Positions 5,319-63,998 of a DNA stretch of 64,000 nucleotides are shown piece after piece; the first letter of the stretch is position 1, and every line of letters begins with the position of its first letter. Source of the stretch: Octopus vulgaris. Taxonomy: Eukaryota. The stretch lies in NCBI GenBank assembly GCA_951406725.2, contig OX597824.1, positions 27,528,001 through 27,592,000 of the forward strand, given 5' to 3'. The notes under the pieces were generated by a model. The model made no database searches. It worked only from the letters and a program-made list of their open reading frames with translations, and was not told the origin of the DNA. A program made the translations under genes and the position numbers.

Positions 5319-5951
5319 GGCAGTTTTCTGCCATCTTTAAATCTGTTTGTGTGTCTCACAGTAAGTTATCTAATGAACCCTGTAATTGCGTCTAAATCGG
5401 AATCGACCGTGGGTCAAATAACATCAATATCGGACATAATGGATGCATAGAATAAGAGAAATCTGTTGAAAACGACAAGAACGTTTCAACATTTAAAGTG
5501 GAATCCTTGCCGTAATGGTAATCATGTATGGACAGATATGAATGTAGCGGTAAGAAGGTCGGTTCGGAACCAAGTGAGTTTGGTAGAGCAGGGTGAAAAT
5601 TTGTGGAAGTCTCTCGTGTATATCCATATATATGTGTATATATATATATATATATATATATATATATATATATATATATATATATATATATATATATATA
5701 TATATATATATATATATATAAAATAGAAATATTAAAATTACTAAGTCTCTCTAAAAGAGAACAACGGCAGCGTTTCCGGAAAATAATAGTTATCGCCATA
5801 CTAATATGGCATTCTTATAAAAATAAGAATAAAGCTGTCCGCTTATTAGCTCCACGAGGCCATCGCCTTAAGTTAGCTATTTGATACACAAACTGTATCC
5901 ATATAACCTTCGAACAAGGGAGGTCAGTCGCTCCACACTACTTGACCGGCA

Positions 5952-5993
5952 GCTACAGACGCGTTTCGGAGTATTGCCCCTTTTCAATGCAGC
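5952..5993 (-). ncRNA. Minimal type I hammerhead ribozyme, variant core UUGAAAA
   Basis: Minus strand: gctgca-TTGAAAA-gggg caata ctcc-GAAA-c gc GTC-tgtagc; 6-bp stem I, 4-bp stem II, palindromic ACGCGT stem III. Confidence 0.7.
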
Positions 5994-6097
5994 GTAGCCA
6001 GACCAGTAGGTGTCGCTTCTGACAATCTCTGTTCGAAGGTTTTATTTACCTAGCTTCGGTAGAATACATCCACTTGTTTTCAATAATAGAAATATAC

Positions 6098-6139
6098 GCT
6101 GCCTTGAAAAGGGGCAATACCCCGAAACGCGTCTGTAGC
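6098..6139 (+). ncRNA. Minimal type I hammerhead ribozyme, variant core UUGAAAA (mirror copy)
   Basis: gctgcc-TTGAAAA-gggg caata cccc-GAAA-c gc GTC-tgtagc; one mismatch closing stem I. Confidence 0.65.
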
Positions 6140-6376
6140 TGCCGGTCAAGTAGTGTGGAGCGACTGACCTCCCTTGTTCGAAGGTTATATGGATACAGTT
6201 TGTGTATCAAATAGCTAACTTAAGGCGATGGCCTCATGGAGCTAATAAGCGGACAGCTTTATTATTATTTTTATAAGAATGCCATATTAGTATGGCGATA
6301 ACTATATATATATATATATATATGTATGTATATATGTATATATGCTTGTGTGTATATATATATATGCATATATATA

Positions 6377-6682
6377 TATAATTTAGGGTATCTAAGAGAT
6401 ACCAACACGCTGGAAATACCAGTCAGAACTTGACTCTAAAACTATTTAAACTATCTGAGTTGACTTTAAAGCTATCTGAGTATATTCCACTGATGAAGGC
6501 AGAGCATTTCTTATACAAAACCAGAAATCCGGAGTCTGGAATTATCCAGTAATTTTTTGCTAGTTTATTTATTTTTTTTTGTCTTCTTTCCTGGTGGTGT
6601 ATGAACATTTAATGTGGTTTTAGAGTCACGTTTTGACTGCTATTTCCAGCGTGGTGGTGTCTCTTAGATACCCTAAATTATA
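6377..6682 (+). mobile_element. Fold-back hammerhead-bearing element next to a TA tract
   Basis: About 67-bp inverted repeats at 6377-6443 and 6616-6682 enclose an HHR; the 3' half recurs at about 52438-52580. Confidence 0.75.
6484..6542 (+). ncRNA. Type I hammerhead ribozyme (stem II decayed)
   Basis: attcca-CTGATGA-aggc...acca-GAAA-tccgga-GTC-tggaat; perfect 6-bp stem I and palindromic tccgga; the paralogue at 52440 has gcca, which restores stem II. Confidence 0.7.
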
Positions 6683-7149
6683 ATTTTAAATAATTATTAC
6701 CTTTCAAGGCTTTCATTCCCATGCTGGCCACCCGATAAGATCGGTATTTAAATATCGATCTTATCCTTATATATATTTATAAAAAATCAAGGACTACAAC
6801 AGAGCAAACCCTGCTATTAACTGTAGGTTATAAGACGATTTTTGCAGTTTATCCAACTTCAATACGGCAAACATTTACAACCTTCTATGTTATAAAGCCA
6901 TTATTGTTCCTGAAAGTTGCTTTTTATACCTTCTACGGACTGCTGGACCCTTATTATCTTCCTTCACCTTCATTCTTGAATCTTACCTTATTTTATATAT
7001 ATATATATATATATATATATATATATATATATATATATATATATATATATATATATATATATATGTGATAATTATACGTCTTCAAAAATCGTTTATGCAG
7101 TAATATTCTCATTCATTTCCAATCCGAGCCGTGTTTCCGATAGATAGGT

Positions 7150-7720
7150 GTTCTAATGTCCTTTGATGTAAAGTTTATGTATACTTAGTTGATTCATTTC
7201 AAGTTTATATTCTCACAAGGTAGACATTCCTATGCAGATTTGTTCAATCTGTGATATATGAAATCCGCAGAAGCTAACTCAGGATTTAATTATCGAGTGA
7301 AGTTTTGTTCATCTTGAGCAATTCGTTCATCTTGAGCAATTCTATATATTTCCTATCACTCCAAATATGGATTGTATCAAAGTGATAAGGTACATGCCCA
7401 GATACAAAATCCCTATTCCTTTACGTTATGCATATTTATATATCTACCCTTTTAATAATGTTGGCAAATAAAATAGAGATAAGAATGTGCATTGTCCGTT
7501 TGATTGGAAAATTCTATAAGAGACTGAAGATTGCTCGACATTTTAAAACTGATGTAATACTTGCAGTGTTTAATAAAATGAAGTAGCATGAAGCAATTGA
7601 ACTACCCTACCTTAGGATATACTTGTTGCTTATTTTGATTATAATCATACCATTTGATTTATATGGATAATACCATATAAAATTCTGGTGCCTTTGACTT
7701 AAGTACCATATTCATATGAA
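7150..7720 (+). pseudogene. Heavily decayed Penelope-like reverse transcriptase relic
   Basis: Broken frames in the expected order: VLMSFDVKFMYT (7150-7185, cf. SFDVxSLYT), YAYL, YKRL..DC (cf. RYxDD), LPYL/DILV (about 7602-7627, cf. LPFLDILV). Many stops and frameshifts. Confidence 0.4.
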
Positions 7721-61285: not shown

Positions 61286-61873
61286 TGCATATATAGATTT
61301 CATTGTACATCATTGTATTTCTGTTAGAAAATGTTGCACGAACGAGAGATAAAACGAAGCCACGGATCGGCACGAAAACCGAAATAAACATAATTACAGT
61401 AAGAAAAATGAAGAACAATTTATCCTTAACAAAATACACCCCCCCTTCTCATACAAACATACATACATACATACATACATACATACATACATACATACAT
61501 ACATACATACATACATACATACATATGAGATGAGCATGACTATATATTTGTAGTTACATTTGTATTTTCATGTGCGTTGTCTTGTATATATATATATATA
61601 TATATATATATATACATATACATATCAAACACATGCATATATAGATTTCATTGTACATCATTGTATTTCTGTTAGAAAATGTTGCACGAACGAGAGATAA
61701 AACGAAGCCACGGATCGGCACGAAAACCGAAATAAACATAATTACAGTAAGAAAAATGAAGAACAATTTATCCTTAGAACAAAATACACCCCCTTCTCAT
61801 ACAAACAGGTACGACATGACAACGCACATAAAAATACAAATGCAACTACAAATATATGTAGTCACGCTCATTT
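61286..61873. repeat. Direct plus inverted local duplication (A, B reversed, A, B)
   Basis: A: 61286-61459 and 61634-61807; B: about 61817-61873, with an inverted copy at about 61527-61585. Confidence 0.85.
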
Positions 61874-61883
61874 CACAATCTTA

Positions 61884-62279
61884 TCTTTATATATAAAGAG
61901 AAGTTGTGTGTCTGTCTCCTACGATTTAGATTCCTAACTACTCCCACATCTTGCAGTGCAGTTTAACCAAAACCGGGTATCTTATAGTCGTGATTCATAT
62001 CGAGCCCTTCTGGGTATTAGCGCGCGTCTACAATGAGTCTACGATTTAAAAGAAAAATTAACATCATTTTTTCCATTTTAATGCATTTTTTCGATGTTAT
62101 ATAAGGGAAATAACTCTCTAAAAATGTCTACGATGAGTGAACGATTTAAAAAAAAATTTACCATAATTTTTTTTCCATTTTTGATACATCTTTTTGCTAT
62201 TTTTGGGCTATAACTCTCTAAAAATGCTTATATAGTTATTTCCCTTACAAATCTGAGCAACGCCGGGCGATACTGCTAG
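61884..62279 (+). mobile_element. Non-autonomous Helitron, complete (396 bp)
   Basis: A|TCTTTATATATAAAG 5' end, subterminal GC-rich hairpin ctgagcaacgccggg, CTAG|T 3' end, no TSD; a second partial copy lies at 9579. Confidence 0.85.
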
Positions 62280-63495
62280 TTATAATATATATATATATAT
62301 ATATATATATATATATATGTATGTATGCTAGTATATGTATATGTGTATATTAATTTGCATACATATGTGTATGTATACATGTGCTGTGAAAACAGAAAGT
62401 GCAAGAAAGTGAGGATGACTTAAAGACCGACAAACATAAGATCAGGCACAAATATCTGCATATGGCTATGTCTTTGTCTTGCTTTATTTAGCTATTTCAG
62501 CGTCTGTCAATTCCCACCTTCTCTCTCTCTCTCTCTCTCTCTCTCTCTCTCTCTCTCTCTCTCTCTCTCTCTCTCTCTCTCTCCCTCTCACTCTCTCCGA
62601 TTACTTATATGTACTTATGTGTGTGAAGAAATATATAGATCCATATCCATCTCTCTCTCTCTCTCTCTTTCTTTCTCTCCGATTTCTTACATGTATTTAT
62701 ATAAGTGTGAAGAAATCTATCCATCTATCTATCTATCTATCTATCTATCTATCTATCTATCTATCTATCTATCTATCTATCTATCTATCTATATATCTAT
62801 CTATCTATCTATCTATCTAACTACATATATATATATATATATATATATATATATATATACACATATATATATATATATACATATATATATATATATATAT
62901 ATATGTATGTATGTATACATATGTATATATACATATACACACGGCAGGGGGTGCAGACGAGGTCAGCTGCATCGAACTCTCTCATGCACCAAATGGCAAT
63001 TGCTAAAAAGCAATCGTGAAGTAAAATCATGTAGCAACACCAAATGGCGCTGCCCCAGCATGGCCACAGCTAGATAAAATAAAAATAAATAATATGATAA
63101 GGAATACCAGATAAGCCACCCATAATTGGATACAACTCACCCAACAAAAACTAACTACTTGAATGGACCATAAACAAAACTTGACTTAAACAGGATTCAA
63201 ATAATCCTATCAGGTGGTGCTATTAAGTTAGACATGACCTGGACTAATCTTTGGTCGAAACATATCTAAGTTTATCTAAGTTTATATATATATTAATCTA
63301 TGTATGTATGTAAGTATGTATGTATACATGCTCATATGCAAGTGTCTCTATAGCAACTAGTTTACAAGTACACAATTATACCTTGTATATATATATATAT
63401 ATATATATATATATATATATATATATATATATATATATATATATATATATATATATATATATATATATACAATATGTTACATTACTCGGTAGTCA

Positions 63496-63558
63496 AGATA
63501 AAACTCTGAGTTTCAGATGCCGAAGTGGAAATCCACAACACCATCTCTTCGGTTATCT
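63496..63558 (-). ncRNA. Type I hammerhead ribozyme, variant core CCGAAGA
   Basis: agataa-CCGAAGA-gatg...catc t-GAAA-ctc a gaG TT-ttatct; perfect 6-bp stem I; near-palindromic stem III. Confidence 0.7.
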
Positions 63559-63752
63559 GGCTAGTTGAAAACGTTATGAAAAAATACCGTTAAAAATGAA
63601 GGGAAATTACTCTGTTATAACTCTGCTTTGCCTGCGTACTTATACATCGCTCGCATTTTTCGTCATAAAAATTATATAAAAATACATAAAAATATATAAA
63701 AATATATAAAAATATATAAATTCTTCTTGGGACATAACACAGAAAGCTTGTT

Positions 63753-63998
63753 CTATCTGTTTTCTTTAGGGGACCAAAAACGTAACAGAAATTTAGTCAC
63801 ATGTGGGCATGATCCGAAAAGCTCTGTCCTTGTATTTAGACATGTGGTAGGGTCTAAGCTGCTTTTCCAGATAAGCCATCTCTCCATGTCGCATAAACCG
63901 CACCTTCTGCTGCCGTTAGTATAGGGCTTACATCTGGCCAAAATCTTCCATTGTATGTTATAATCGACACCTTTATCTCTTAAAGACCAAATATGATT
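63753..63998 (-). CDS. C-terminus of a Penelope-like GIY-YIG endonuclease (Cys-rich, probably Naiad-type); 5'-partial
   Basis: Open to the window edge: NHIWSLRDKGVDYNIQWKILARCKPYTNGSRRCGLCDMERWLIWKSSLDPTTCLNTRTELFGSCPHVTKFLL, matching IWxLK..IxWxI..CxLCxxE..LNxRxE..CxH. Confidence 0.85.
   Translation of the reverse strand, partial: NHIWSLRDKGVDYNIQWKILARCKPYTNGSRRCGLCDMERWLIWKSSLDPTTCLNTRTELFGSCPHVTKFLLRFWSPKENR

Follow-up and report, generated by a model that had tools for sequence, protein, structure and literature searches.

Hammerhead-bearing repeat families, Penelope-like elements, and (TA)n runs in a window of the Octopus vulgaris genome

Hammerhead motifs and repeat families in the window

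We analyzed a 64,000-nucleotide stretch of the Octopus vulgaris genome (assembly GCA_951406725.2, contig OX597824.1, positions 27,528,001 to 27,592,000, forward strand), hereafter the window, which has 34% GC and dense microsatellites and comes from a 2.8-Gb genome in 227 contigs. It contains 12 type I hammerhead ribozyme (HHR) motifs in nine repeat families, A to I. Families H and I are assigned to the 3′ ends of Penelope-like elements (PLEs) of the Hydra and Neptune types, respectively, and families A–G have no open reading frame (ORF). Eight of the families have two fixed 3′ ends, one long and one short, and many copies are inverted fold-backs whose arms end at these sites.

Family A forms a fold-back whose long-end arm (5722–6095, − strand; one 362-nt unit plus 12 nt) begins at (TA)42 and carries an intact U3–A8 HHR at 5952–5993, and whose short-end arm (6095–6303, +) has an HHR at 6098–6144 with a broken closing pair in stem I and ends in (TA)10. 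The family B fold-back (6377–6776, +) consists of a short arm at 6377–6442 (−) and a long arm at 6475–6770 (+), with an HHR (core 6490, +) decayed in stems II and III; an old partial B copy at 52437–52614 (+) ends in (TA)31. Family C is present at 10327–10510 (+; HHR with core 10395 and a broken stem I, TA at the short end) and at 46923–47074 (+; core 46962, stem III broken, TA runs on both sides). The 3′ end of the Neptune-type PLE, family I, lies at 10588–10840 (+), with an intact C4-core HHR at 10630–10674 and its long end in (TA)12, and is followed by a partly inverted D copy (10928–11329, +) that lacks its 3′ part and has a decayed HHR (core 11203). The E fold-back at 33332–33528 (−; core 33426, −, stem I broken) ends outside TA runs. 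Family F is represented by one arm with a 642-nt unit (42858–43529, −; HHR intact with core 43148; TA at the short end) and an inverted arm (43530–44311, +; intact HHR, core 43782) that uses a less common end site, in (TA)31, and family G by a copy with a ~459-nt unit (52665–53099, +; core 52861) that ends in (TA)12. At the right edge, the 3′ untranslated region (UTR) of the Hydra-clade PLE, family H (63470–63755, −), has an intact C4-variant HHR (core 63552) and its short end in (TA)42; it adjoins the C-terminal 81 codons of a Hydra-type GIY-YIG endonuclease (EN; 63756–64000, −) in a 5′-truncated ORF, and this truncated ORF and an inverted long-end arm extend ~620 nt past the window. The original prediction, made from the window sequence, had described several elements as fold-backs, which we confirmed for A, B, D, E, F, and H; a repeat search of the window was informative solely for the inverted arms of F. 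Different families are also joined end to end via shared TA runs (5637–6776, 10327–11329, and 52437–53118), an arrangement of insertions nested in one another's flanks.

An HHR descriptor combining a core (CTGANGA, CCGANGA, or TTGANAA) with stems I–III and UH matched the window seven times, compared to a mean of 0.13 (maximum 1) in 100 block-wise dinucleotide shuffles. Six matches were good, with cores at 5987 (−), 10635 (+), 43148 (−), 43782 (+), 52861 (+), and 63552 (−); the seventh, at 15713 (−), was poor and chance-like and was dropped. Six further motifs, at 6104 (+), 6490 (+), 10395 (+), 46962 (+), 11203 (+), and 33426 (−), fail the descriptor through point changes, and the core and three stems are intact in the majority sequence, taken from BLAST-collected copies, of every family behind them. 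The motifs are genuine HHR sequences of repeat families, and half of the window copies are decayed. All 11 motifs named in the original prediction are real, lie where it had placed them, and fall into eight families; it had missed the motif at 10635 (+), which belongs to the ninth family, I. The families are mutually unalignable, as it had claimed, with no BLASTN similarity among nine family references. Decayed HHR-like motifs also occur at 680–735 (+) and at 7515–7610 (+), the latter resembling a cluster found in loci L005 and L252. Among the matches listed from an Rfam scan of the window (150 of 610), none was to the hammerhead family; those listed were microsatellite-driven matches to miRNA and similar entries.

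In 293 loci (1.07 Mb), which were chosen around the window families and PLE ORFs and are therefore HHR-enriched, a stricter descriptor gave 337 matches compared to 0 in the reversed sequence. These matches fell into 27 clusters, nine of which are the window families. The genome-wide search for type I HHRs envisaged in the original prediction succeeded for the A lineage: a pattern that constrained the first pair of stem II gave 2,262 matches, and the reversed pattern gave 0. First-look genome candidates, which are not copy numbers and of which 40 were scored per family, amounted to 1375 for A, 2808 for B, 2328 for C, 1176 for D, 995 for E, 1353 for F, and 460 for G.

The majority sequences of families A–H and the single I sequence have the features of a type I HHR, namely the core, GAAA, UH, stems I and II, and a short palindromic stem III. 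Family A has a U3–A8 core and CGCG as stem III; B, C, D, and F have an N–N mismatch at the base of stem II; E is minimal, with an extra A; G has a full stem II; and H and I have a C4 core. Between subfamilies of A, stem III changes from CGCG to CATG and a G-U pair in stem I becomes G-C or A-U, with pairing kept. Compensatory stem changes were seen between A subfamilies and not within the other families, whose stems decay like their flanks.

Hydra- and Neptune-type partners and the ORF-less families

The HHR at 63552 lies behind a 253-aa frame that leaves the window and whose end encodes a Hydra-type endonuclease; the PLE endonuclease ORF that the original prediction had placed before this motif (at 63496) is real. 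The linked endonuclease domain showed 98–100% identity in all 150 candidates scored, out of 22,480, and five of these 150 were intact, with 717-aa open frames (708 aa from Met). The element is ~2.57 kb long, with a single ORF and, at its C terminus, a GIY-YIG endonuclease; the Pfam GIY-YIG model matched the window-linked fragment weakly (E = 0.014) and did not match the full H protein. In the translation, read against the clade definition, RWK, DKT, a CxCX5C linker, and CxxC/CxH are present and CCHH is absent. Nearly all families of the Hydra clade insert in (TA)n and carry HHRs, and Hydra-1_Obim of Octopus bimaculoides is one such (TA)n-inserting, HHR-bearing element (PMC8557442). Hydra-1_Obim is like H in its length of ~2.6 kb, its one ORF, all the motifs just listed, the lack of CCHH, and (TA)n insertion, and in an HHR whose GAAA is preceded by an additional U and whose palindromic stem III is odd. 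Compared by eye only, H appears to be a separate family, clearly homologous but diverged, which differs in youth and abundance, in its CCGAAGA core and 76-nt tail, and in many ~265-bp palindromic minis. From its motifs and this comparison, we assign family H as a young Hydra-clade PLE.

The minis consist of the last ~170 nt of H, found alone as ~265-bp palindromes. Where they lie in (TA)n (loci L025–L053), both arms break off ~6–12 nt short of the HHR core, and this stop is strong. The minis resemble a miniature inverted-repeat transposable element (MITE). A near-full Hydra copy ~7 kb to the right of the window (L021:8383–10000, L022:1–110) has frameshifts and stops and is cut before the endonuclease, and older, more diverged Hydra-type fragments in L191, L235, L005, and L289 point to several Hydra waves.

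The second partner was reached via GIY-YIG loci. Window positions 10588–10809 are 99.6% identical over 222 nt to a PLE 3′ end in locus L277, and in L277 and L278 an HHR identical to the one at 10635 follows a Neptune-type EN ORF at a distance of ~500 nt. Like Neptune-clade PLEs, this element has a C-terminal GIY-YIG domain with the CCHH pattern and a CX4CxxC linker, which falls within the CX2–5CxxC form of the clade, and has a 30-nt tail; a reverse transcriptase (RT) domain lies upstream. Pfam placed GIY-YIG above the cut-off and RVT_1 just below it (E = 2.5e-6). By these domain and motif features, family I is classed as the 3′ end of a Neptune-type PLE, the copy read being 5′-truncated (574 aa). 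The original prediction had proposed one candidate Penelope-like partner; the PLE link is real, but there are at least two autonomous lineages, of Hydra and Neptune type. A second young Neptune-type PLE outside the window (L274–L276; 16 of 148 matches listed) has 781-aa open frames, a ~1-kb 3′ UTR, a U3–A8 HHR-like motif, and an end in (TA)n. L138:780–1625 and L044:2319–2726 hold what we take to be Poseidon-like RT and EN fragments; a third PLE lineage would then be present and could serve D or E. The RT fragment abuts a D copy in L138 and was considered as the D partner, but this is a single case with no EN between the two and was read as nesting.

Families A, F, and G consist of ORF-less tandem units of 362, 642, and ~459 nt, as measured from spacings of 360–364 nt (26 spacings), 640–644 nt (28), and 447–459 nt (5), and one locus (L023) holds an array of about ten A units. 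Each unit carries a type I HHR, and these three families are of the non-LTR retrozyme type. Family B has four irregular tandem spacings, family D has terminal redundancy only, and C and E showed no tandem units in 25 loci each; B, C, D, and E are not classed as retrozymes. Four contig sets presumed to derive from RNA cover family A and are uninformative on strand, ends, and circles. A 12–14-nt motif around CTGCTATTTC stands ~30–60 nt ahead of the short end in several elements that are unrelated in other respects, with 163 matches compared to 1 in the reversed sequence, and is a candidate protein-binding signal. It occurs in families B, F, and G, at window positions 45970–46010 (−), and in L039, L107, L237, L251, L270, and L281; no autonomous element carrying it was found among the loci examined.

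(TA)n runs, two 3′ ends, and inverted insertions

We scored a 3′ end as TA-adjacent when at least four TA units lay within 12 nt after it, and random places gave a background of 6–10%. By this measure 56–100% of the ends of seven families lie in TA (A, 36/43; B, 26/46; C, 19/34; F, 28/32; G, 19/32; H, 90/100; I, 8/8). The association is weak for D (9/39) and absent for E (1/43), so the claim that these elements touch (TA)n above background stands for A, B, C, F, G, H, and I but not for E, and barely for D. In 30 A-lineage loci picked by position rather than similarity, 23 of 31 main-site ends were in TA; 14 further alignment ends in these loci were internal breaks or lay at other sites.

The runs could in principle have been made, or greatly lengthened, by the element RT at priming rather than chosen as targets. 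TA runs are not part of the tandem units, as such an origin would have it, and an H mini inserted in a SINE-like repeat (L026) is flanked by TA12 and TA16 where other copies of the repeat have short runs. This L026 insertion was the one clean case in an empty-site search of 78 insertions, of which 11 gave matches, nearly all low-complexity or self. Among the empty copies of the same repeat, on the other hand, 2 of 34 have 41–49 units; length-weighted targeting predicts 26–32 units, like the filled sites (medians of 11 and 13 per side), and families D and E have the same anatomy without runs. The run lengths fit a length-weighted choice of existing (TA)n runs, and we regard their production by the RT as improbable. 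The SINE-like repeat, present in L026 and many other loci, is abundant and has an internal microsatellite that serves as a landing site.

The two fixed 3′ ends are separated by 66 nt in A, 94 in B, 138 in C, 44 in D, 31 in E, 126 in F, 76 in H, and 30 in I; family G has one clear 3′ end. Among 88 inverted insertions with both ends classifiable, which exclude 23 of 111 paired insertions with an end at neither site, 84 combined a long with a short end, three were short+short, and one was long+long (binomial p = 2e-20 against one half). The single long+long pair (L237), probably mis-paired, is counted in the 88 and was excluded from the arm analysis. When A and B, for which the query contained both ends, are left out, 55 of 58 pairs are long+short, and the position-picked A loci gave four such pairs by script, four more from the end table, and none with like ends. 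Arm lengths vary independently in 52 insertions of A, F, and H (79–3574 nt in A), and either arm may be the longer. Junctions differ between insertions and mostly show 0–6 nt of overlap or short fillers. Divergence between arms was lower within than between insertions for A (0.7 compared to 1.3%, p = 0.0002) and H (0.5 compared to 1.0%, 0 of 5000).

Because 84 of the 88 insertions pair a long with a short end and arm lengths are independent, we lean, with modest preference, toward two primings, one per target end, with a fixed division between two RT start sites. It is also the simplest reading because the Poseidon PLE PAc cuts and extends both strands in vitro and starts reverse transcription at two sites, one on either side of the tail (PMC11167929). 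A fold-back could instead arise by self-priming, in which one cDNA (or an antisense RNA) copies itself and the second arm ends at an internal TA-like site, as proposed for rotifer PLEs (PMC3846280). Many of the ~265-bp H minis indeed fold at a short palindrome and have nearly equal 5′ limits, the short ends sit in TA-rich sequence able to pair with the target, and variants are common to both arms. The arms are nevertheless not always nested: after ten pairs had been flagged and two dropped (L236, where the reference was cut short, and L032, which has an internal deletion), 8 of 52 pairs (A, 4; F, 1; H, 3) remained in which neither arm fits inside the other, beyond 35 nt. They include the window H copy, with a short-end arm of 1029 nt and a long-end arm of 134 nt. 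Because their arms are non-nested, this copy and the seven others did not come from one cDNA copying itself, and in H minis either arm may reach 5 nt further. We consider self-priming unlikely, although 44 of the 52 pairs are compatible with a single cDNA folding back. Besides this compatibility and the 23 excluded insertions, the case for two primings is weakened by the F arms, whose likeness was not significant (n = 3, p = 0.33), by gene conversion, from which arm likeness could also stem, and by PMC11167929, in which the two strands are alike in start site and the HHR is dispensable for insertion in vitro.

Inverted ends, TA flanks, and the lack of an ORF would also suit MITEs (DNA transposons whose terminal inverted repeats lie at TA) that happen to hold HHR-like text, and TA runs are common enough (background 6–10%) that motifs or TA adjacency might reflect chance in a microsatellite-rich genome. 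The insertions lack the fixed length and fixed terminal inverted repeats of MITEs; arms are unequal, arm lengths and junctions vary per insertion, and the families include tandem arrays and direct continuity with PLE ORFs. The HHR controls gave 0.13 in shuffles and 0 in both the reversed loci and the reversed genome pattern, and the same pipeline returned 1/43 TA ends for E. We regard both explanations as extremely improbable and already refuted by these results.

Mobilization and relation to known elements

Most probably, the motifs are HHRs in the 3′ terminal repeats of PLEs and of ORF-less families likely mobilized by PLEs in trans, and the ends of seven of the nine families lie mostly in (TA)n. 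The trans-mobilization of the short families is suggested by their shared insertion anatomy. The ribozyme-based retro-system landing in microsatellites that the original prediction had proposed is upheld insofar as H and I are assigned as PLE 3′ ends and the rest share PLE anatomy, but E is not TA-linked and D barely so; a PLE ORF is linked to H (Hydra) and I (Neptune), and to none of A–G in the loci compared.

Under the favored two-priming scheme, a PLE protein, probably a dimer, would bind a site near the RNA 3′ end and cut a (TA)n run that was already there, or AT-rich DNA in the case of D and E, on both strands. One cDNA would be primed per target end from the same RNA or donor, with the long start site used on one and the short on the other, and the two cDNAs would stop independently and be joined head to head via 0–6 nt of microhomology or a few added bases, yielding the fold-back. 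In its putative role, the HHR, which would be carried along, likely cleaves multimeric transcripts to single units, either as a dimer or aided by protein (drawn from PMC4209133 and PMC11167929). If this scheme is correct, a two-ended reaction normally yields an inverted pseudo-long terminal repeat (pLTR) tailed on one side, and this genome, in which young Hydra and Neptune proteins are intact and many passenger RNAs occur, would suit reconstitution of microsatellite-targeted, two-ended target-primed reverse transcription.

Several observations count against the PLE and ribozyme assignment. Comparison with 60 PLE-bearing loci gave no sequence link between A–G and any autonomous PLE, and A–G share no sequence with H, I, or the sampled PLE ORFs except as separate insertions. 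Within families, stems vary like flanks (4.7% compared to 4.2%), and the low core divergence of 1.7% is partly due to the presence of the core in the query; pairs broken on one side (172 cells) outnumber pairs kept by two-sided change (15). Single HHRs fold no better than shuffles (z −0.2 to −2.5), except in F, and six of the 12 window motifs are decayed. Since most copies in the genome are dead, decay of stems like flanks within families is expected.

The missing sequence link would fit a scheme in which A–G are rolling-circle retrozymes mobilized by a microsatellite-targeting LINE rather than by PLEs; LINE fragments are frequent in the loci, and PMC13282606 reports young LINE families in Octopus vulgaris. 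Yet A–G show the same inverted anatomy, with two ends and a tail on one arm, as the PLE-linked H and I; HHRs of the B, F, and I type have a stem II base mismatch and a palindromic stem III, as listed for Hydra HHRs; and a PLE origin of retrozymes has been argued (10.64898/2026.07.22.740005). We judge LINE mobilization quite improbable and retain PLE mobilization in trans.

Families A, F, and G resemble described non-LTR retrozymes in forming tandem arrays of 362–642-nt units that lack an ORF and hold one type I HHR each, and in occurring as solo copies too (PMC7229834; 10.64898/2026.07.22.740005), but end at two fixed (TA)n sites with an inverted arm, a PLE signature; neither "inverted" nor "microsatellite" appears in the main text of PMC7229834. 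Genomes with many HHR families, U3–A8 cores, opposite-strand pairs 100–700 bp apart, and solo motifs are described in PMC4209133. The window HHRs are like its minimal PLE hammerheads in the U3–A8 core, an extra base after A9, and a palindromic stem III, but their stem III is longer, reaching 7 nt, and their stem II can hold long inserts (81 nt in F); the Octopus families were not found in its relevant parts. Compared to Poseidon PAc, tails here are 30–138 nt, and PMC11167929 does not deal with inverted insertions.

HHRs in pLTRs, many families per genome, (TA)n targeting, and inverted copies have all been published, and the families described here extend known kinds. PLE inverted copies with a tail on one end (PMC8557442; PMC3846280) and retrozymes as non-autonomous PLEs (10.64898/2026.07.22.740005) are likewise in print. 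What this analysis adds is the presence of two fixed 3′ ends in eight families and the near-exclusive long+short pairing with independent arms. These families, the 30–138-nt tail range, and the counted long+short rule were not found in the literature searched, and repeat libraries, subscription papers, or supplements may hold them. On how PLEs produce inverted ends with a one-sided tail, the long+short rule with independent arms makes a sharp, testable prediction. A recent repeat annotation of Octopus vulgaris lists 893 recently active unclassified SINE families, and its main text never uses hammerhead, ribozyme, retrozyme, Hydra, or Neptune (PMC13282606); HHR-bearing PLE families may be misfiled there.

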